A stretch of 48,167 nt of DNA from a virus (Duplodnaviria; Heunggongvirae; Uroviricota; Caudoviricetes), in the IMG/VR virus record IMGVR_UViG_2721755721_000005; one strand, 5' to 3'. How positions within the stretch are numbered: position 1 is the first letter of the stretch; each line of letters begins with the position of its first letter. The translations under genes were made by a program, and so were the position numbers. This document shows, piece after piece, positions 5,805 to 19,596 of the stretch. Below the pieces are notes generated by a model. It made no database searches. It saw only the letters and a program-made list of their open reading frames with translations, and was not told the DNA's origin.

Positions 5805-6032
5805 ATGTTTAAATCAGACGTAATTAATTTTTACGGTACGAAAGCCAAAGTAGCGAAAGCTGCTGGCGTTGACCCATCTGCTGTTTCTCAATGGCAAGAG
5901 CTGGTTCCTGAAGGTCGCGCGATGCGTCTACAGGAGGCATCTGGCGGCGAGCTTCTGTATGATCCCAAGGTTTATGACGAATATCGTAAGACGAAGCGGG
6001 CGGGGCGGTTGAACAATGAAAATCACTCCTGA
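5805..6032 (+). CDS. Cro/YdaS-like small HTH regulator
   Basis: ATG at 5805 with GGAGG SD; 75 aa (MFKSDVINFYGTKAKVAKAAGVDPSAVSQWQ...), Cro/CI-type HTH, divergent from the repressor. Confidence 0.7.
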   Translation: MFKSDVINFYGTKAKVAKAAGVDPSAVSQWQELVPEGRAMRLQEASGGELLYDPKVYDEYRKTKRAGRLNNENHS

Positions 6033-6537
6033 ACAGGCTCGTGAGGCTCTGGATGCCTGGATATGTCGACCAGGAATGACACAGGAGCAGGCGACGATAT
6101 TAATCACTGAAGCATTCTGGGCTTTGAAAGAGCGCCCGAACATCGATGTTCAGCGTGTCACATATGAAGGTGGCGCGGTTGATCAGCGAGCGCTTAGCGT
6201 TAATCGAGTGAAGATATTCGAACGCTGGAAGGCTATCGACACCAGGGATAAGCGTGAAAAGTTCACAGCGCTAGTGCCTGCAATTATGGAGGCTATCCGG
6301 ATTAGTGATTTCAGGTTGTATCGTGAGATCAGTGATGGAAAAAGTATTACGTACATGATCGCCGGGTTAAATAAAGAATATGGCGATGTGGTGGAATCCG
6401 GACTGCTTTTTGCAGATCCTGCCGTTGTAGATCGTGAAACTGACGAACTTATAGAAAAAGCAATTGCTTTCAAGCTTGCGTATCGACAGCAATACCAACA
6501 AAAAGCTGGATGGAATTATGAGTCTTCTTTTTGCTGA
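6016..6537 (+). CDS. YdaT-like early protein (function uncertain)
   Basis: 173-aa ORF directly after the cro-like gene and overlapping the replication gene start, the position ydaT occupies in Rac. Confidence 0.5.
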   Translation: MKITPEQAREALDAWICRPGMTQEQATILITEAFWALKERPNIDVQRVTYEGGAVDQRALSVNRVKIFERWKAIDTRDKREKFTALVPAIMEAIRISDFRLYREISDGKSITYMIAGLNKEYGDVVESGLLFADPAVVDRETDELIEKAIAFKLAYRQQYQQKAGWNYESSFC

Positions 6538-7523: not shown

Positions 7524-7949
7524 GTGGCAAAAGTTTTTACACAAGAAGAGCGGGAAAAAATTAAAGGGCAGGTGGTGGAACTCGTGCGCCAGAGCGGTCG
7601 TGAGACGTTACGGCAACTGGAAGCTAAAACAGGTGCGACAAGATATCTGATGAGCGTTCTTGCCAGAGAGTTGGTTGCCAGTGGTGATGTATACAACTCC
7701 GGCTACGGGTTATTCCCGTCTGAACAGGCGCGTAAGGACTGGCAAAACGCCCGCAAAAAACTCTCGAGGGCAAAGGTGAAGAAACCTGCTGTGGTTGATC
7801 CGGATCTTATCTGGTCATTATCTGACGGAGAAATACGTCGCTACGACAGTCGTCTAAACATAATTTGTAGCGAGTGCCGGAGGAGTGAAGTTATGCAGCG
7901 CATACTGGCATTTTATCAGGGAAATGTTCGATATTTTAGACGTTACTAG
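7524..7949 (+). CDS. Hypothetical protein downstream of the replication initiator
   Basis: 141-aa ORF with a GTG start preceded by AAGGGGGA; no recognisable motif. Confidence 0.45.
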   Translation: MAKVFTQEEREKIKGQVVELVRQSGRETLRQLEAKTGATRYLMSVLARELVASGDVYNSGYGLFPSEQARKDWQNARKKLSRAKVKKPAVVDPDLIWSLSDGEIRRYDSRLNIICSECRRSEVMQRILAFYQGNVRYFRRY

Positions 7950-8321
7950 ATTAAAGAGCATTAGTTCAGATATGAATTGACATTTTCATGGCACAGGGTT
8001 GAGCTAGCGTGGTTGTCCGCTTTGTGCCAGTAACGGACGTTTTAAACATTTGTAATCACTAATCCGCGTAGAAAAGATCTCACCGCATAATCAGGCAAAC
8101 ATGCAGGAACATCTGAGGAGTTTTTTCGAGATACGGACAAGGAAAAGCAGCAGAACCTCGTTGAGGCCCTCTCAGGTGGTGCCGGAAAGAGATGTTATGG
8201 TAAATATCGCAGACATAGAGCATTTGAAGTGATATTTAGCATACTTATGCTCTTATTGTAGATTGGCTTTTACCAAATAAGCTTTTTACTACAATGTATG
8301 AACATAAGCCGATTGATCTTT

Positions 8322-9029
8322 TTAGGCAGCAGTCGCTTGCTCACTTCTGCTATCACCAAACATAGTCTGTGCTGCCATGTCAACATCTCCAGATACTGAA
8401 TTCTCGTATCTTCTAATAGCTTCATCTGGCGTTTCGGTAAAGGTTTTTTCAGCAAAAATAATATCTTGTAGTTCGCATATCTTTATTTTCAACTTTCTTA
8501 GGGTGTCACTATCGTTTTTTCCTGTGATCCTCACACAAGCATTAATACGATTAATTATTATTTCTTGGAATATGTTTTTCTTTTCCTCAATTATTCTTCT
8601 AAAAAGAACTATTGTTTTTTCTTTTCCTATAATATCCTCTTCAAGAGGCGCTTTTGCTTTCTCTATATCTTTCTTTGACGCAAACTCATTAAATGCAAAA
8701 GTGGTTATGTAACCTATTATTATAGGAAGGAATGAATAGGAAGTTGGTACTTTTGTTGTTAGGTAGGTTGATATGGCTCCTATGACTATTAATACTGTTC
8801 TTTTATACCAAGGTACAGAGATTATGAATTCGAAAAAACGTGTTATCGCCACATGCATCTTTTGCAAAAGGCAAAGGATTAAAACTACTATAACAACGAT
8901 AATAAGTATCGCAGCAAAACTTGAAGCGACCTCAGTTACTGATGAATTACTATTTTTTTCAGCAGTATAGCTACTTACAGTAGATGGCGTATTGATTTCT
9001 AATTGTTTGTTTTCAATCTCGGTGCCCAC
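8322..9029 (-). CDS. Uncharacterised membrane protein (gene B of a two-gene accessory operon): three predicted TM helices plus a ~110-aa charged C-terminal domain
   Basis: 235-aa ORF with a GTG start 10 nt after the gene A stop. Hydrophobic segments AAILIIVVIVVLILCLL, TVLIVIGAISTYL and FLPIIIGYITTFAF. Strongly AT-rich by eye. Confidence 0.6.
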   Translation of the reverse strand: MGTEIENKQLEINTPSTVSSYTAEKNSNSSVTEVASSFAAILIIVVIVVLILCLLQKMHVAITRFFEFIISVPWYKRTVLIVIGAISTYLTTKVPTSYSFLPIIIGYITTFAFNEFASKKDIEKAKAPLEEDIIGKEKTIVLFRRIIEEKKNIFQEIIINRINACVRITGKNDSDTLRKLKIKICELQDIIFAEKTFTETPDEAIRRYENSVSGDVDMAAQTMFGDSRSEQATAA

Positions 9030-9038
9030 GCTAATCCC

Positions 9039-9509
9039 TTAATCTTTGGCCATTCCTAATTTTTCAAATAATGTCGGTGCTCCAGCTAAAATTGCGGCTA
9101 GCATTCTTAACGAATCACCAGATAAGTTGAGCATCTTTTCATCAACAGCAATCTCTTCTACTGTGAAAACAATCAATGGTGTTTGTTCTTCTTCAATTAT
9201 TGTCGATTTTATTCCTATTGATTTTCTATTAAAATTATTAGCAATGGACAGTAGCGATTGTTTATCTTTGCCTATTTTCATGGCGTTGGTGTTAAAAGAG
9301 TTCATCAGTCTCATTACTATTATTCTAGATGCTACTCTCTTCTCAAGTATTAAATTGACTTCATTGAATTTAAATGCAACCAATTCAAATCCTTCTTCTC
9401 TCTCTAATTCTTTTATATTATTAAACTCACTTATGCTAGATATAATATCTATAAGGCTTTGATTATTTCTCTTTTGTGTTTCGGTTTTTTTCCTTCTTCC
9501 AGAAGACAT
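9039..9509 (-). CDS. Uncharacterised soluble protein (gene A of the two-gene accessory operon)
   Basis: 156-aa ORF with AAGGA SD about 8 nt upstream of the ATG; basic N-terminus (MSSGRRKKTETQKR); no recognisable motif; AT-rich. Confidence 0.6.
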   Translation of the reverse strand: MSSGRRKKTETQKRNNQSLIDIISSISEFNNIKELEREEGFELVAFKFNEVNLILEKRVASRIIVMRLMNSFNTNAMKIGKDKQSLLSIANNFNRKSIGIKSTIIEEEQTPLIVFTVEEIAVDEKMLNLSGDSLRMLAAILAGAPTLFEKLGMAKD

Positions 9510-9560
9510 CTTTTTTCCTTAATGAATTTATGTGTGGTGATAGTATCCAGCTCTAGATAA

Positions 9561-9590
9561 GAAAAAACACCGCTACCAATGGTGTTTTTT
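9561..9590. terminator. Perfect palindromic hairpin flanked by an A-run and a T-run (bidirectional terminator-like)
   Basis: AAAAAACACC-gctaccaat-GGTGTTTTTT, about 50 bp upstream of the gene A start codon. Confidence 0.4.
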
Positions 9591-10537
9591 CAAGGTTCTT
9601 AGAGCTACCAACTTTTTGAACCGTGGTAACTGGCTTTAACGGAGCGCAGTAACCAAAACTGTCTTTTCAGTGTATCTGTAGTTAGGCCGACACTTCAAGA
9701 ATTCTTTGTACTTTCGTGCGTTTACTCGCTCCATAAAACCAGTTACCAATGGTTACCACCATTGGCGATTTATCGTGCCTGTCAAGATTGGGATCAAGAG
9801 AACAGTTACCTAAATTGCTGTGGTAGTCGGGTGGATCGGGGAGTTCGTGCATATAGCCAAGCTTGGATCGCACCACCTTTAAGGAAACCCGTTGTACGGA
9901 AAGGAATGGGAAAACGCGACCTTACGGCGGTCTGCGACGGGTAAACCTCATGGTGGGAACAGGGCACCGCTTTGCTGAGATGCAGGATAGGGCAGACCCC
10001 CGCAAAATGTCGTCATTTGCGGTGTCTGCCCCGAAAACAGAATATTTTTTCCTGAGCCTGCAGCTGGCTCTAAAAACCGCTATCGCCTCACAAAGCTCGC
10101 TGCTTAACGCCTCACGTTCACCCACTAAACAGCGCACCTGTTAACCGTGAATCACGTACAGATTTATCAATATACTTCGCACGTTTACTGCCGGAAATCC
10201 TCCCTTAATTCCCGCATTTGCCCGAAACCGCCCGCCATTCACCCGCGTGCGCAGGCATTCAGATGCGCAGAAATTAGCATGGGTGTTTTTTCACAATACG
10301 GACGGGGAATAGTGCCGGAAACGGGCCGGACGCGCAAAGATCGCGCTGAGTGGGTGCGGCCAGGTCTTGTTGAGTTTAATGTAATAGTAAATCCAGTCTT
10401 TATGAGTGAAACGTCCACTTCTCGCTCATGGCGGCACTTTAGTGGGCCTGTAAAGTGGATGTTGCCAATCAACGATGAGCAAGGCATTCTAATTGCTTGA
10501 GGTGTTTTCGTATAAAATTTAAACAAAAGGAGCAATT

Positions 10538-11887
10538 ATGTCGAGTCTGAGAGATATGGAAGAGCTTATTGGTGATATCGTGGATGTTGAGCTTAAAGAA
10601 TACATGCGAGAAGCACTAATTTGCTATATGACTGGTGCTCATCGAGCATGCGTAGTGCTTTCGTTCATTGCCATCTTCGAGGACTTATTCAAAAAGTTAG
10701 ACGGGATGGCCACTACGAATAGAGTTGCTAAAGCGATCTTTACAGAAATATCCAAGAAAAGAGATGAACAAAAAGTTTACGAAAATGATTTGCTTAATAA
10801 ATTGAAATCTGAAAAAATAATTACAGAGATTGATGCTGACTTTCTCACTGTGTTAAGAACTCTCAGAAATAAAGCTGCACATCCTTCAGGCCATAAACCG
10901 ACAGCTGAAGAAGCTCGATATGTGTATTCAGAAACTATAAATAGATTTCTTTCAAAGCCAGTTCTTTCAACAACTCAAGTTGCCGACCAAATCCTATCTA
11001 AGCTTACCAATTCATACTTATTCCCAACATCTAATATTCAGGACCATGCTATCGTAGTAAATGAGGGTGTTAAAAATCTTCATCATGATGGTTACTCATA
11101 CCTCCTGAAAAAACTCATAGAGTCATTAGACAATGCCAATGAACAAATAAAACTTAATGCAAAAAGATATCTTTTAGGCCTATCTTTTAAACCACTAAAT
11201 AACGATGTTCTTGAGCAAATAAAAAAGCATTTCTTAGTTGAGTGCAGTTCGGATGAAAGTAAAAGACAATGTTTAATGGAATGTATTTCAACCAATGGTA
11301 ATTTGCTAAAAGGTATGGAGGATATTGTTTACTTAAGATTAAATAAAATGTTTGAGGATACAATTTCAACTACAAAATCCTCCGATCAGCATACCTATTT
11401 AAGGCACCCTGTACAGATTGCAATTAGTGTTCTTGGGTTGGAAAGAGAAATTATTGATAGATGCTTTAGATCTAGCATTGATGATGTTCTTGAAAAATAT
11501 AAACTTAGCCCAGTGCTGATGAAGAATATAAAAGGGCATGAGTGGGCTAGACAGAAAGTCATCCAATCAATTTTTGGGCAGGCCGGATCTACAACTTTCT
11601 CTGAAGCTAACACTTTTGCTCAGAGTGTAAATTCATACGATGGTGACATCTCCAGTTTGATGGACAACATAAATTGCTTCGAACTCATTGTTCATATCTG
11701 TGCTGCAGGCAATTGGGGTTCATTTGGAGCTGAAGGTATGATGAAAGGAAAATTCAATAATATCCCTAAAATTAAAGAAAAGGCTGTTAAAGCTCTGCAG
11801 GATAATATCTCTAATTGCCAAGAAATAATTGCAAGAATAAATCCAGCTCTATGTGAAGCAAAGGATTTTGAAGAAAGATATCTTTGA
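10538..11887 (+). CDS. HEPN-domain protein (Rx4H motif, DUF4145/Apea-like) with a ~300-aa uncharacterised C-terminal region
   Basis: 449-aa ORF with AAAGGAG SD. Motif LRTLRNKAAHP (nt 10864-10881), i.e. R-x4-H, in a predicted helical N-terminal domain. AT-rich; divergent from the two-gene operon. Confidence 0.7.
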   Translation: MSSLRDMEELIGDIVDVELKEYMREALICYMTGAHRACVVLSFIAIFEDLFKKLDGMATTNRVAKAIFTEISKKRDEQKVYENDLLNKLKSEKIITEIDADFLTVLRTLRNKAAHPSGHKPTAEEARYVYSETINRFLSKPVLSTTQVADQILSKLTNSYLFPTSNIQDHAIVVNEGVKNLHHDGYSYLLKKLIESLDNANEQIKLNAKRYLLGLSFKPLNNDVLEQIKKHFLVECSSDESKRQCLMECISTNGNLLKGMEDIVYLRLNKMFEDTISTTKSSDQHTYLRHPVQIAISVLGLEREIIDRCFRSSIDDVLEKYKLSPVLMKNIKGHEWARQKVIQSIFGQAGSTTFSEANTFAQSVNSYDGDISSLMDNINCFELIVHICAAGNWGSFGAEGMMKGKFNNIPKIKEKAVKALQDNISNCQEIIARINPALCEAKDFEERYL

Positions 11888-11929: not shown

Positions 11930-12520
11930 TTATAGGAGTTATTGGGTGGGTTAATATAACGTTTATTCACCATCAATCAACCGCAACCTTAATGGTGTTA
12001 TTTTCAACCGCGAACTTCCGCTTCTCGCTCAAAGCGGACTAAAATGTTGGCTTGCGCCGGACTTTGCGTATTTAAATAAGTGCTGGTGGTGACTGGTTGC
12101 TGTGTTCTATTTCTACAGAACAAAATTACAGAAACTATACCCAATAGTTGTATTGAATCACTGACGAGACAGCCTCATATTTATCAGGACAGGTGTACGT
12201 TCTATACAGGAGGTTGCCGTGCTGGTTCTCAAATGTGCGCTGGCTATTGTGGCTGTAATGGCGATTTATTGTCTTGCCATTATTCTTATGGATCGCCTTT
12301 CTGACTGATTTCATATTGGCGAGGTAACGGGAGTTAAGTAGAATGGCTGCGGGTGCTTGAGGCTGTCTGCCTCGGGCATGAACACCAACGGCAGATAGAG
12401 AAAAGCCCCAGTTAACATTACACGTCCTGCAAGACGCTTAACATTAATCTGAGGCCACATCTATACTTTGCATACGTAGATTAGCCTCTTACCGACCAAA
12501 AGGTCAAAGAGAAGCGGGCT

Positions 12521-12676
12521 ATGAAGCAGCAAAAGGCGATGTTAATCGCCCTGATCGTCATCTGTTTAACCGTCATAGTGACGGCGCTGGTAACGAGGAA
12601 AGACCTCTGCGAGGTACGAATCCGAACCGGCCAGACGGAGGTCGCTGTCTTCACAGCTTACGAACCTGAGGAGTAA
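12521..12676 (+). CDS. hokD: Hok/Gef-family type I toxin (HokD/RelF-type), 51 aa
   Basis: Not in the ORF track (under 60 aa). Translation MKQQKAMLIALIVICLTVIVTALVTRKDLCEVRIRTGQTEVAVFTAYEPEE has the Hok pattern: one TM helix plus the conserved RK.LCE.R...EVA.F.AYE periplasmic tail. Confidence 0.85.
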   Translation: MKQQKAMLIALIVICLTVIVTALVTRKDLCEVRIRTGQTEVAVFTAYEPEE

Positions 12677-12745
12677 GAGACCAGGCGGGGGAGAAATCCC
12701 TCGCCATCTCTGATGAGTCAGGCATCCTCAATGCACCCACACTTA

Positions 12746-12770
12746 ACCCGCTTCGGCGGGTTTTTGTTTT
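12746..12770 (+). terminator. Rho-independent terminator downstream of hok
   Basis: ACCCGC-ttcg-GCGGGT followed by TTTTTGTTTTTATTTT. Confidence 0.6.
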
Positions 12771-17631: not shown

Positions 17632-18164
17632 AAATTAATCCGGATCTTATAGGCGTTGTCGTTATTGCTGGCCTTTCGGTCGCTCTCGTCAAGAGTTGCT
17701 CTCACGCCAGTAATCTTCAGAGCGATAACGACGTTCTGCGAAGTGACAACTCTATGCTGGAGCAGGTAATCGCCACCCAGGCATTCAACTTCAATCGATT
17801 CAATCAGGTTGCAGAACATGCCAACAGTCTTAACTCCCTGATCGACACCAGCACCGAAAAAACCGTAATCGAATACCGGGAGATTCTCCGCCGTGAAAAA
17901 ACCTGTGATCTGCCTGTTCCTGCTGATATCGCTGGTGGGTTGCTCGAATACACGTACCGTTTACGTGCCAGCGCCATGCACACCGATACCGGCAGACCTA
18001 ATGAAGCCTATGATCGTACCGCTGCCACCAGCTCAATGACCTACTGCCAAGCTGTCTTGTGGATTAAGCCGCTACTGGCGTTGATAGAAAAAGGAAATAA
18101 TAATTTTTCGAGTATTCGTGAAATTGATGAGTTGCGTTACAGACCATCTGAGCGTGGCCAGTAA
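17628..18164 (+). CDS. i-spanin Rz
   Basis: ATG at 17628 overlaps the endolysin stop; N-terminal TM segment (LIGVVVIAGLSVALV) then a coiled-coil-like periplasmic domain. Confidence 0.75.
   Translation: MKINPDLIGVVVIAGLSVALVKSCSHASNLQSDNDVLRSDNSMLEQVIATQAFNFNRFNQVAEHANSLNSLIDTSTEKTVIEYREILRREKTCDLPVPADIAGGLLEYTYRLRASAMHTDTGRPNEAYDRTAATSSMTYCQAVLWIKPLLALIEKGNNNFSSIREIDELRYRPSERGQ
17893..18039 (+). CDS. o-spanin Rz1 (lipoprotein) embedded in the +1 frame of Rz
   Basis: GTG start; translation (M)KKPVICLFLLISLVGCSNTRTVYVPAPCTPIPADLMKPMIVPLPPAQ has lipobox LVGC and a Pro-rich mature part. Below the ORF-track size threshold. Confidence 0.6.
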   Translation: MKKPVICLFLLISLVGCSNTRTVYVPAPCTPIPADLMKPMIVPLPPAQ

Positions 18165-18332
18165 GGTTACAGGAAATTTAAAATCTGGCGATGAAATTTA
18201 ATATTAGAAATTCATTGCCTAGTGAGATTAATAATGGGCATCCCTTTGTGACGATAAGCTTTAACACATTCACAAAGGGATATTTAATATAGGGTGGTTA
18301 AATCCCACTTGCTGTGGTGTTTAGGGGATAAT

Positions 18333-19025
18333 TCAAATCTTATCTAACTCATTATAGGCTTCGATAATAAAAATTCTGATTTTAATAAGGCATGATTCAA
18401 TGAAAGGAATTACTTCATAGTCATTCCCATGGAATCTTATTTTTTTCTCTTCGGTAATGACTATGTTTAAAGGTACACCATTACCACTTCTTTGTAATCT
18501 CCCATTTTCGAAAGTAAAGTCTTCTAATTTTTTTCCATTGATATGGTTGTTTTTAAAGAGAATTTTTGCTGAGCTCCCTGCTGTGATTAAATTAAAACCA
18601 TCTACGCTCACACTTAGTTCTTTAACAGAACTCTCTTCTCTTAAGGGGATTGGTTGTCTGTGCTTTACTTCATTAGTGAGATTACACATCATTTCCAACC
18701 AAGATTCGCCAGTGTGATAATCCTGTATAGAAGTAAAAATTTTATATAATGGAGAAGATGATGGTGGGTTTATTTTTAGCGTCTTTGAGAAAAATTTATC
18801 AATAAACTCTTTTTTTCTGTAAGGGAAATATATTTTGGGACGCTCATCATTACTGCTTGGAGAAATATATTTATCATAGGTATCATTAGCGAGATACTCT
18901 AAGGAACTTCGTAAGTTTTCCAAAATAGCTTTGACTTTTACAGGCTTGATATGCTGTGTCTGTCTCATTATGTCAAGACTTTCTTCAACCTCTTGCAATA
19001 AGTCCAACGAGCCTTCTCTAGACAT
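18333..19025 (-). CDS. Uncharacterised moron protein at the lambda bor position (between Rz and cos)
   Basis: 230-aa minus-strand ORF with a strong SD (AAAGGAG) and an upstream TATAAT; AT-rich; no TM segment or recognisable motif. Confidence 0.6.
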   Translation of the reverse strand: MSREGSLDLLQEVEESLDIMRQTQHIKPVKVKAILENLRSSLEYLANDTYDKYISPSSNDERPKIYFPYRKKEFIDKFFSKTLKINPPSSSPLYKIFTSIQDYHTGESWLEMMCNLTNEVKHRQPIPLREESSVKELSVSVDGFNLITAGSSAKILFKNNHINGKKLEDFTFENGRLQRSGNGVPLNIVITEEKKIRFHGNDYEVIPFIESCLIKIRIFIIEAYNELDKI

Positions 19026-19596
19026 ACAGGTAATTCTCCTTTTTGAATTTTCAACATGTTATAACTAATTATATATTTATCATATAACTGTATGAATAAA
19101 TTGTGAGATTAGTAATGCAAGTTTCTATCCATAGTGTTCCCTAAGTACCCGCTTCCATCATGTTGTTACGGACGGTATGGCTAAAACAAAGCACCTGAAG
19201 TTAAACGTTCTGAACTTTATGCTCGTTGAGCATATGAATTATCTGTAACCCGATGCGCTGGTTGTGGTTCAAATTGATGGTCGTAATCAGCAGCGGTAGT
19301 GCCTGATGGCATGCAACTTCTTACTTATAAAACTTCGTATGGAATTGTTGCCATAACGAGCCCAGCTTAGCAGTTTTTAATGGGTCCTCCCGGCAGTGTG
19401 TCCTGCCACGGGGCGGGAGCGTCGCGGAAAAAGGCTAGTTTTTGAAATTTCATCCGTCATCACCACTACTGTAATAGATTGATATTACAGTATTTTTATT
19501 TTTGTGGTGTCGATTTTGATTGTTTTTTGTTCATCACTAACACCGTTTGCCTAAAGTCGTTCGCAAGATGCATGTTTAAAACATTCTGGAGCGGGT

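Follow-up and report, generated by a model that had tools for sequence, protein, structure and literature searches.

Several described systems pair a soluble protein with a small membrane protein. RexAB is a prophage two-gene operon in which a soluble protein (RexA, 279 aa) is encoded first and a small multi-pass membrane protein (RexB, 144 aa) second; it lies in the immunity region, and its expression in the lysogen runs opposite to lytic transcription. The transmembrane (TM) effectors of retron, CBASS and Pycsar systems, and the 4TM "Effector" models of PADLOC, also join a cytosolic partner to a small membrane effector on mobile elements and in defence hot spots. PD-T7-3, now named DARNA, has been cloned and characterised as a single gene and is a HEPN RNase abortive-infection (Abi) system. 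In this study, we analysed a stretch of 48,167 nucleotides from a Caudoviricetes virus (IMG/VR record IMGVR_UViG_2721755721_000005; hereafter the window), and in it two adjacent genes, A and B, which a preliminary description had proposed as a candidate abortive-infection module analogous to RexAB. The window is a lambdoid, Qin-like prophage that has integrated next to rspAB/ynfA. We found that A and B form a conserved pair within what is, with good support, an integrated ColE1-type mini-plasmid; their function is proposed more tentatively.

The analogy with RexAB stood for the order of the genes, a soluble protein followed by a multi-pass membrane protein, and the pair would likewise be expressed in the lysogen, against lytic transcription. 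It did not stand for size or topology, since A has 156 aa and B has 235 aa, with three predicted TM helices and a large cytoplasmic domain. Rex lies in the immunity region, whereas A/B lies in the nin slot and is of plasmid origin. Homology to RexAB was rejected, with hhalign probabilities of 0.1% (A against RexA) and 0.3% (B against RexB). Compared with the TM-effector systems, A/B has no signalling enzyme, reverse transcriptase or nuclease partner. A scan of PADLOC-DB v2.0.0 gave no match for A and a single match of a TM segment of B to an effector model, which is not significant (E 0.14), in keeping with the earlier remark that no motif of a named system could be recognised. Class I holins (small proteins of ~70-150 aa with three TM helices, N-out/C-in, encoded beside the endolysin) were also considered and rejected: the topology of B is similar, but B has 235 aa with a 119-aa cytoplasmic domain, is encoded ~8 kb from the lysis cassette and matches no holin family. 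No component of A/B is part of a catalogued system, and the architecture of a soluble partner with a small membrane effector is already known.

Two linked minus-strand genes had been described at this position, and the open reading frames (ORFs) are there; NCBI PGAP calls the same coding sequences (CDS) in Escherichia coli 13KWH46 (WP_000094483 and WP_023156363, "hypothetical protein"), and 25 further complete genomes carry both CDS as "hypothetical protein" from the NCBI pipeline. Each gene was confirmed to have its own Shine-Dalgarno sequence: AAGGA precedes A, and the AAGGG of B overlaps the stop codon of A. The gap between the genes, given before as 10 nt, measures 9 nt. This junction layout suggests that translation of A and B is coupled. 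The guanine-cytosine (GC) fraction of the pair is 0.33 against 0.49 for the whole window, so the block is AT-rich as had been noted. Its position in place of the nin region was also borne out, after cro/ydaT/replication gene/DUF977 and before hokD-rem-DUF968-rusA-Q.

The pair is flanked by an RNAI gene, an ori-like sequence and a cer site, none of which the preliminary description had noted. On the strand of gene A, ~50 nt upstream of it, lies the ColE1-type antisense RNAI gene. Its minimum free energy fold has the three canonical stem-loops, and its promoter, TTGAAG (9698-9693) / TACACT (9674-9669), is present. RNAI scored above the Rfam gathering score in 11 related loci (L002-L007, L010, L014 and L017-L019 in our numbering), always ~50 nt upstream of A, and both the spacing and the spacer sequence persist even in loci where the identity of A falls to 41-49%. 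More than 5000 ColE1-like plasmids, mostly small and some of them of 2-3.5 kb, align to the segment 9544-10353 at 68-83%. Downstream of B, an intact XerC-spacer-XerD core, GGTGCCGGAAA-GAGATG-TTATGGTAAAT, was found at 8178-8205; the search with the cer core pattern gave one match (1 mismatch), against 0.02 expected by chance. The second, degenerate cer-like region has a XerC-like arm, GGTGCGGCCAG, at 10353-10363 and no recognisable XerD arm. Both regions share the direct repeat D4 (8117-8147 / 10282-10312) and together they bracket B, A, RNAI and the origin in direct orientation.

A search of PLSDB by tblastn found A and B together on one plasmid only, pPA3.0 (NZ_EU092237.1), a 2901-bp cryptic ColE1-type plasmid of Pantoea agglomerans ARB18. 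The amino acid identities are 80% for A and 83% for B, and the two genes are the sole annotated CDS of pPA3.0, where they have no assigned function. Related contigs of 2-4.5 kb likewise have the pair as their only annotated cargo. No paper mentioning pPA3.0 or the WP accessions was found in a literature search. Window 8147-9878 is collinear with pPA3.0 458-2187 over 1746 bp at 82% nucleotide identity, and the gene order, the 9-nt gap, the RNAI gene ~50 nt upstream and the cer-type site downstream of B are the same in both. The window copy differs in that it is chromosomal, lies within a prophage and is flanked by the second, degenerate cer-like region. As pPA3.0 207-298 and 371-476 recur at window 10057-10148 and 10245-10350, beyond the collinear stretch, the plasmid circle has apparently been opened and permuted in the window. 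The segment from ori to cer is 921 bp in pPA3.0 and 179 bp in the window, where it is closer to other ColE1 plasmids. Small contigs of 1.7-4.6 kb from several metagenomes also carry RNAI, then A, then B, with the same conserved spacer of ~50 nt. Some of these contigs hold classical toxin-antitoxin (TA) modules as well (ParE/RHH, YoeB/YefM), so A/B is probably not their only stabiliser. The conclusion that ~8015-10363 is an integrated pPA3.0-type ColE1 mini-plasmid, or a remnant of one, is well supported by these results, as is the conclusion that A/B is the signature cargo of this mini-plasmid family. The coordinates are collected in Table 1.

Table 1. Features of the A/B locus and its surroundings, in window coordinates.
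Feature	Position	Strand	Details
Gene A	9039..9509	-	ATG start, 156 aa, ORF list
Gene B	8322..9029	-	GTG start, 235 aa, ORF list
A-B junction	9027..9041	-	A stop codon, 9-nt spacer GGGATTAGC, B GTG start
RNAI terminator-to-A-start spacer	9510..9558	.	conserved in alignment of 9 loci
ColE1-type antisense RNAI gene	9559..9661	-	Rfam RF00106, 68.4 bits against a gathering score of 47, E 2e-11
ColE1-type RNAII / origin-like region	9555..10150	+	GC 0.49, alignment to ColE1-like plasmids
cer-like multimer-resolution site (accessory region + core)	8064..8205	+	alignment to pPA3.0 cer region
Second, degenerate cer-like region	10245..10363	+	accessory sequence 74% identical to pPA3.0 371-476
Hairpin-containing end of mobile A/B unit, AACGTCCGTTACTGGCACAAAGCGGAC	8015..8041	-	boundary constant in all integrated copies
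PD-T7-3/DARNA-like gene	10538..11887	+	449 aa, DUF4145/HEPN, GC 0.35

By analogy with ColE1 plasmids, the spacer is presumed to carry the RNAII promoter on the + strand (extended -10 TGATAGTAT, 9538-9546). Because this promoter would lie on the strand opposite to A/B, transcription of the pair probably begins at the RNAI promoter and reads through, or else begins at a divergent promoter that overlaps. The prophage RNAI gene with its promoter (9559-9698, -) has kept both promoter and structure. We speculate that this RNAI, if expressed, could block the replication of incoming ColE1 plasmids of the same specificity, an incompatibility or anti-plasmid side effect.

The unit was also found in other settings. 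A 1.95-kb block, corresponding to window 9964 to 8015 and containing part of RNAII, RNAI, A, B and cer, adjoins the 3' end of a tRNA gene in L017 and L018 (95% identity) and has a different flank in L019 (89% identity). In the nin slot of Cronobacter sakazakii prophages, window 9799 to 8019 recurs at 85% in the opposite orientation relative to the phage, and the RNAI of these copies has decayed below Rfam detection. L017 and L018 are the Logan contigs SRR28957480 and SRR17222370. At positions 1-190 of L018, the A/B unit abuts the tRNA gene 3' end (GGTTCGAGTCC...CCA) plus a terminator hairpin; an IS3-family element with an IS1222-type frameshift signal and a catalase-peroxidase gene lie near the L017/L018 unit.

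The end of the unit next to cer is constant at the hairpin, whereas the end within the ori region is variable, which suggests recombination through conserved ColE1 sequence. The common prophage backbone, seen in 3135 E. coli genomes, loses its conservation at about 8042, where this hairpin lies. The hairpin is one of three copies of a ~25-nt motif, AAC[GT]TCC..CT..GC.CA..GCGG, at 8015-8041 (-), 10410-10434 (+) and 12013-12039 (+); the latter two flank the DARNA-like gene. These copies may be moron boundaries, terminators or recombination hot-spot sequences. A query built from the chimeric flanks found no E. coli genome with an uninterrupted junction that would represent the empty site. We do not claim a simple Xer integration with two hybrid core sites, as the core is intact on the left side only and the two cer regions show little resemblance. 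Given the missing XerD arm on the right and this weak likeness, integration may have been Xer-mediated, homologous or the outcome of successive events.

We next consider how widely the pair occurs. Among 5.8 billion clusters, 39 homologues of A and 13 of B were recovered. An exhaustive HMMER search of 1.84 billion representatives with the A profile returned only 10 clusters of the family and no remote relatives, and an alignment-seeded search with B gave 13 proteins, every one of the same family. GTDB species-representative genomes searched with A and B patterns contained no relatives of either, and in IMG/VR the family was found only as the same E. coli prophage. The pair is hosted by Escherichia, Pantoea, Yersinia, Cronobacter, Serratia and Enterobacter and also occurs in metagenomes. 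Among Enterobacterales, A/B is a rarely encountered accessory element.

An A homologue lies directly upstream of each B homologue (12 loci, 40-95% identity). The gap between them is 9 nt in 10 of the 12 loci and 2-3 nt in the other two, and the A-A and B-B distances correlate with r = 0.96. Relative to the window copy, the ratio of nonsynonymous to synonymous substitution rates (dN/dS) is 0.17-0.29 for A and 0.14-0.29 for B. Both genes are intact in all 12 loci. The gene calls include a seemingly truncated A (P0038, 88 aa) and a short B (L017, 198 aa), but these reflect wrongly called start codons, and A and B are complete in both cases. The preliminary description had claimed an uncharacterised two-gene unit and had named conservation of the pair, and its co-occurrence in other prophages, among the things to check; the pair is kept in 12 of 12 loci and is present in Cronobacter and Serratia prophages. 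These results indicate, from sequence comparison, that A and B are an obligate, co-evolving pair, probably translationally coupled. We consider it very likely that the locus is of pPA3.0-type plasmid origin and that A/B is a single unit.

Two rearranged E. coli copies were observed. In NZ_CP055251 (L024), IS2 lies between the DUF977 gene and B. In NZ_CP080066 (L025), an IS1-associated deletion took out, in one piece, the 5' part of B, A, the ori region and the DARNA-like gene. As natural knock-outs for B toxicity, both variants are uninformative.

A and B were compared with Pfam, NCBIfam, PHROG, PADLOC and PDB-sequence families, and nothing significant was found; weak matches to KleE, L20, RIFIN and CR_prot were dismissed as TM or low-complexity noise. 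A is soluble and basic, as described before, with an isoelectric point of 8.9. Its N-terminus (MSSGRRK) is invariant, basic and predicted to be disordered. The AlphaFold2 (AF2) model of A has a confident fold, in which the elements follow the alpha-beta-beta-beta-alpha-beta-beta-alpha order of the fold shared by YbjN and class-I chaperones of type III secretion systems (T3SS). The nearest structural neighbours include AmyR, DR_1245 and PA14_16140/BacA, at an identity of 14% or less. None of the 14 A members matched a Pfam or NCBIfam model (YbjN, CesT or related models) even at E<=10, and a PDB sequence search with A profiles gave no match. On the basis of its model, A is thus a member of the YbjN/T3SS-chaperone (TY-chaperone) superfamily at fold level only.

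Proteins of this superfamily are small, dimeric and peptide-binding, and usually control one cognate partner (PMC5398634). The superfamily has been predicted to be part of antiviral conflict systems (PMC9503650). Our literature search found no paper connecting YbjN-fold proteins to a validated defence system. A differs from the known TY-chaperones (DR_1245, AmyR, DUF2170 BacA, ShcA, SycH, CesT, SicP), to which it has no detectable sequence similarity, in its unique invariant basic N-terminal tail and in a context without a T3SS. The partner of a T3SS chaperone is a secreted effector, whereas the presumed partner of A is an integral membrane protein.

The three hydrophobic helices and the charged domain reported for B were recovered. 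By hydropathy, the helix at 38-56 is strongly hydrophobic and those at 79-92 and 100-116 are weaker. The N-terminal tail is acidic and variable (net -3), and the first loop is positive (net +3). The C-terminal domain (117-235, 119 aa) is charged and helical and holds most of the invariant residues, with the conserved motifs TFAFNEF, EKKN-F and LQDII-AEKTF-ETPDEA-RR. From the hydropathy, charge distribution and conservation of these segments, B is predicted to be an inner-membrane protein with three TM helices, N-out/C-in, and a cytoplasmic C-terminal domain. Its AF2 model is all-helical, with a pLDDT of 69 and a pTM of 0.33. Structure-similarity, profile and PDB sequence searches found no structural or sequence relatives of B.

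From the context of the locus, we tentatively put forward A/B as a candidate membrane-acting phage-exclusion or abortive-infection module with TA-like logic, the reading that we favour over the others considered below. B would be the inner-membrane effector, and A a dimeric peptide-binding protein of the T3SS/YbjN chaperone fold. A would bind or control the conserved cytoplasmic helical domain of B, or alternatively bind a phage trigger; whether A binds B is, in our judgement, evenly poised. A trigger, most plausibly phage infection, would change the hold of A on B. The released B would then perturb the membrane or block phage DNA entry or development, and the outcome would be phage exclusion or abortive infection. 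Such a toxin with a restraining partner would also stabilise a mini-plasmid as an addiction module. Expression of A/B would probably be tied to read-through from the RNAI promoter.

The genes beside A/B bear on this proposal. The adjacent HEPN gene noted in the preliminary description encodes a protein with DUF4145 and an RNKAAH motif at aa 110-115, and it matches PADLOC PD-T7-3 with E 4e-15 over residues 6-282. By sequence, this protein is a fairly distant relative of the DARNA Abi system, an RNase activated by single-stranded DNA. It shares with A/B the island and the AT-rich composition, and its validated relatives act by abortive infection. Unlike the pair, it is a single-gene system of its own, encoded on the opposite strand, and none of the other A/B loci contains it. 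The PtuA/PDC-M01A (E 2e-238) and PDC-M01B (E 1e-114) genes lie beside A/B in the Cronobacter prophages L022/L023, and an AbiJ-like PDC-S32 gene (E 2e-33) does so in the Cronobacter prophage L020. An AbiJ_NTD4/DUF7014 protein is encoded directly after B in L016. In the Serratia prophage L009, A/B is located between the early-left genes and the integrase. In total, four independent contexts, prophage or chromosomal, place A/B next to established or candidate defence genes, a small number from general accessory hot spots. The repeated adjacency supports a role of A/B in conflict systems but does not prove it. The claim of a defence island therefore stands in part: a bona fide defence gene is located beside the pair, and again in other genomes, but the block is ColE1 mini-plasmid cargo plus replicon and not a simple island insertion.

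Several points weigh against the phage-exclusion proposal. The adjacency may reflect no more than insertion in prophage accessory hot spots, which gather TA systems and other morons. The searches that we ran found no homology of A/B to validated defence, TA, holin or exclusion proteins. No natural A-minus/B-plus or A-plus/B-minus variants that could hint at toxicity of B were found across the loci. The confidence of the B model is moderate (pTM 0.33), with TM2 and TM3 weakly hydrophobic. On the plasmid side, the right-hand cer-like site has no XerD arm and the two cer regions are weakly alike. The tight and conserved linkage to RNAI could instead indicate a role in plasmid biology, and the contextual evidence fits a plasmid-addiction (TA-like) role about as well as abortive infection.

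This last role, in its pure form, would be post-segregational killing (PSK), in which B acts as a membrane toxin and A as a labile proteic antitoxin or chaperone, while the prophage copy is a selfish passenger without an anti-phage role. The small soluble partner encoded first and tightly coupled to the effector would suit such a system, as would the finding that neither gene is broken in any of the 12 loci. Moreover, a plasmid of 2.9 kb that is non-mobilizable has to persist by some means, and A/B is all the cargo it has; the disordered invariant N-terminus of A could serve as a degron. However, the tiny A/B plasmids often already hold ParE/RHH or YoeB/YefM, and high-copy ColE1 plasmids have less need of PSK. 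The pair also recurs beside defence genes in prophages, and scans of Pfam, NCBIfam, PHROG and PADLOC showed no similarity to any TA family. We regard pure addiction as rather unlikely, and it overlaps partly with the phage-exclusion proposal because many TA systems are Abi systems.

A function tied to the ColE1 replicon, such as control of copy number or replication, membrane tethering, segregation, or competition with related plasmids, would account for the invariant arrangement of RNAI, A and B. The spacing and spacer that stay conserved where A is only 41-49% identical, and the start region of A abutting the presumed RNAII promoter, point the same way, and the absence of the family from GTDB representative genomes places it mainly on mobile elements. 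Yet ColE1 replicons need no plasmid-encoded protein, more than 5000 plasmids match the origin against one PLSDB plasmid with A/B, and adjacency to the replicon is almost unavoidable in a plasmid of 2-3 kb. Furthermore, A/B is intact and under purifying selection without detectable RNAI or ori in the Serratia prophage L009, in L011/L012 and in L016, and the Cronobacter prophage copies keep only a decayed RNAI. We consider a replicon function improbable.

The structural neighbours of A (AmyR, DR_1245, PA14_16140/BacA) would also suit a host-physiology module, in which a YbjN-like regulator and its membrane partner tune envelope stress, exopolysaccharide, biofilm or motility, to the advantage of the host and with no action on phage. 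YbjN overexpression has been described as pleiotropic, with envelope and multicellular phenotypes (PMC3181261), and the BacA (DUF2170) operon is associated with biofilm (PMC10948618). However, A resembles these proteins only in its fold (identity of at most 14%, no Pfam YbjN match at E<=10), and the pair is distributed over mini-plasmids and prophage accessory slots by defence genes, not core-genome stress operons. We consider this reading very improbable. That the two ORFs are spurious or decaying, in AT-rich junk DNA accompanying a plasmid fossil, might be suggested by a tiny, AT-rich family without annotation, but it is effectively refuted by conservation: both ORFs are intact in 12 loci from Escherichia, Pantoea, Cronobacter, Serratia and metagenomes down to 40% identity, with dN/dS of 0.14-0.29, many invariant motifs and a confident AF2 fold of A.

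If A/B is a defence or addiction module, it would add a new pair, a TY-chaperone fold with a novel 3-TM protein, to the conflict systems of mobile elements, and one that is missing from PADLOC v2 and from all GTDB species-representative genomes. A further-reaching reading is that A/B is an unrecognised anti-phage class on high-copy ColE1 mini-plasmids, captured by prophages via cer/ori, in which the chaperone-fold A restrains a membrane effector or senses a phage protein and expression is hard-wired to the RNAI promoter. We judge this distinctly unlikely; if it were true, mini-plasmids would store defence genes and ferry them to prophage hot spots, and incompatibility against related plasmids could be a further effect of the embedded RNAI/ori. 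The locus documents an under-appreciated route of gene flow, the capture of a ColE1-type mini-plasmid (replicon, cer and cargo) in a lambdoid prophage accessory slot. Its recurrence in Cronobacter prophages and by a tRNA gene ties the defence hot spots of prophages to cryptic mini-plasmids, for whose persistence there is no good explanation so far. A plasmid lying inside a prophage, with an RNAI gene that seems intact, is an unusual arrangement that can be checked, and the two genes of A/B, 1.2 kb in all, make a simple and directly testable construct.

The backbone genes around the island were also annotated. Upstream, a gene at 7524-7949 (+) encodes a DUF977 protein that matches the PHROG "Ren-like exclusion protein" (E 9e-46), and another at 6016-6537 (+) encodes a YdaT-family protein; both are typical early-right genes of Rac/Qin-type prophages. 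Directly downstream of the island formed by A/B and the DARNA-like gene, the sok antisense RNA (Rfam RF01794, 97.9 bits) and the hokD type I toxin gene were found at 12351-12526 (+) and 12521-12676 (+), followed at 12680-12766 by weak, sub-threshold isrK/rsmX-like matches. Between the lysis genes and the terminase region there is a second AT-rich block (18000-19300, GC 0.32-0.36), with an ORF at 18333-19025 (-) for a 230-aa "hypothetical protein" with no Pfam or PADLOC match, which is possibly a moron.

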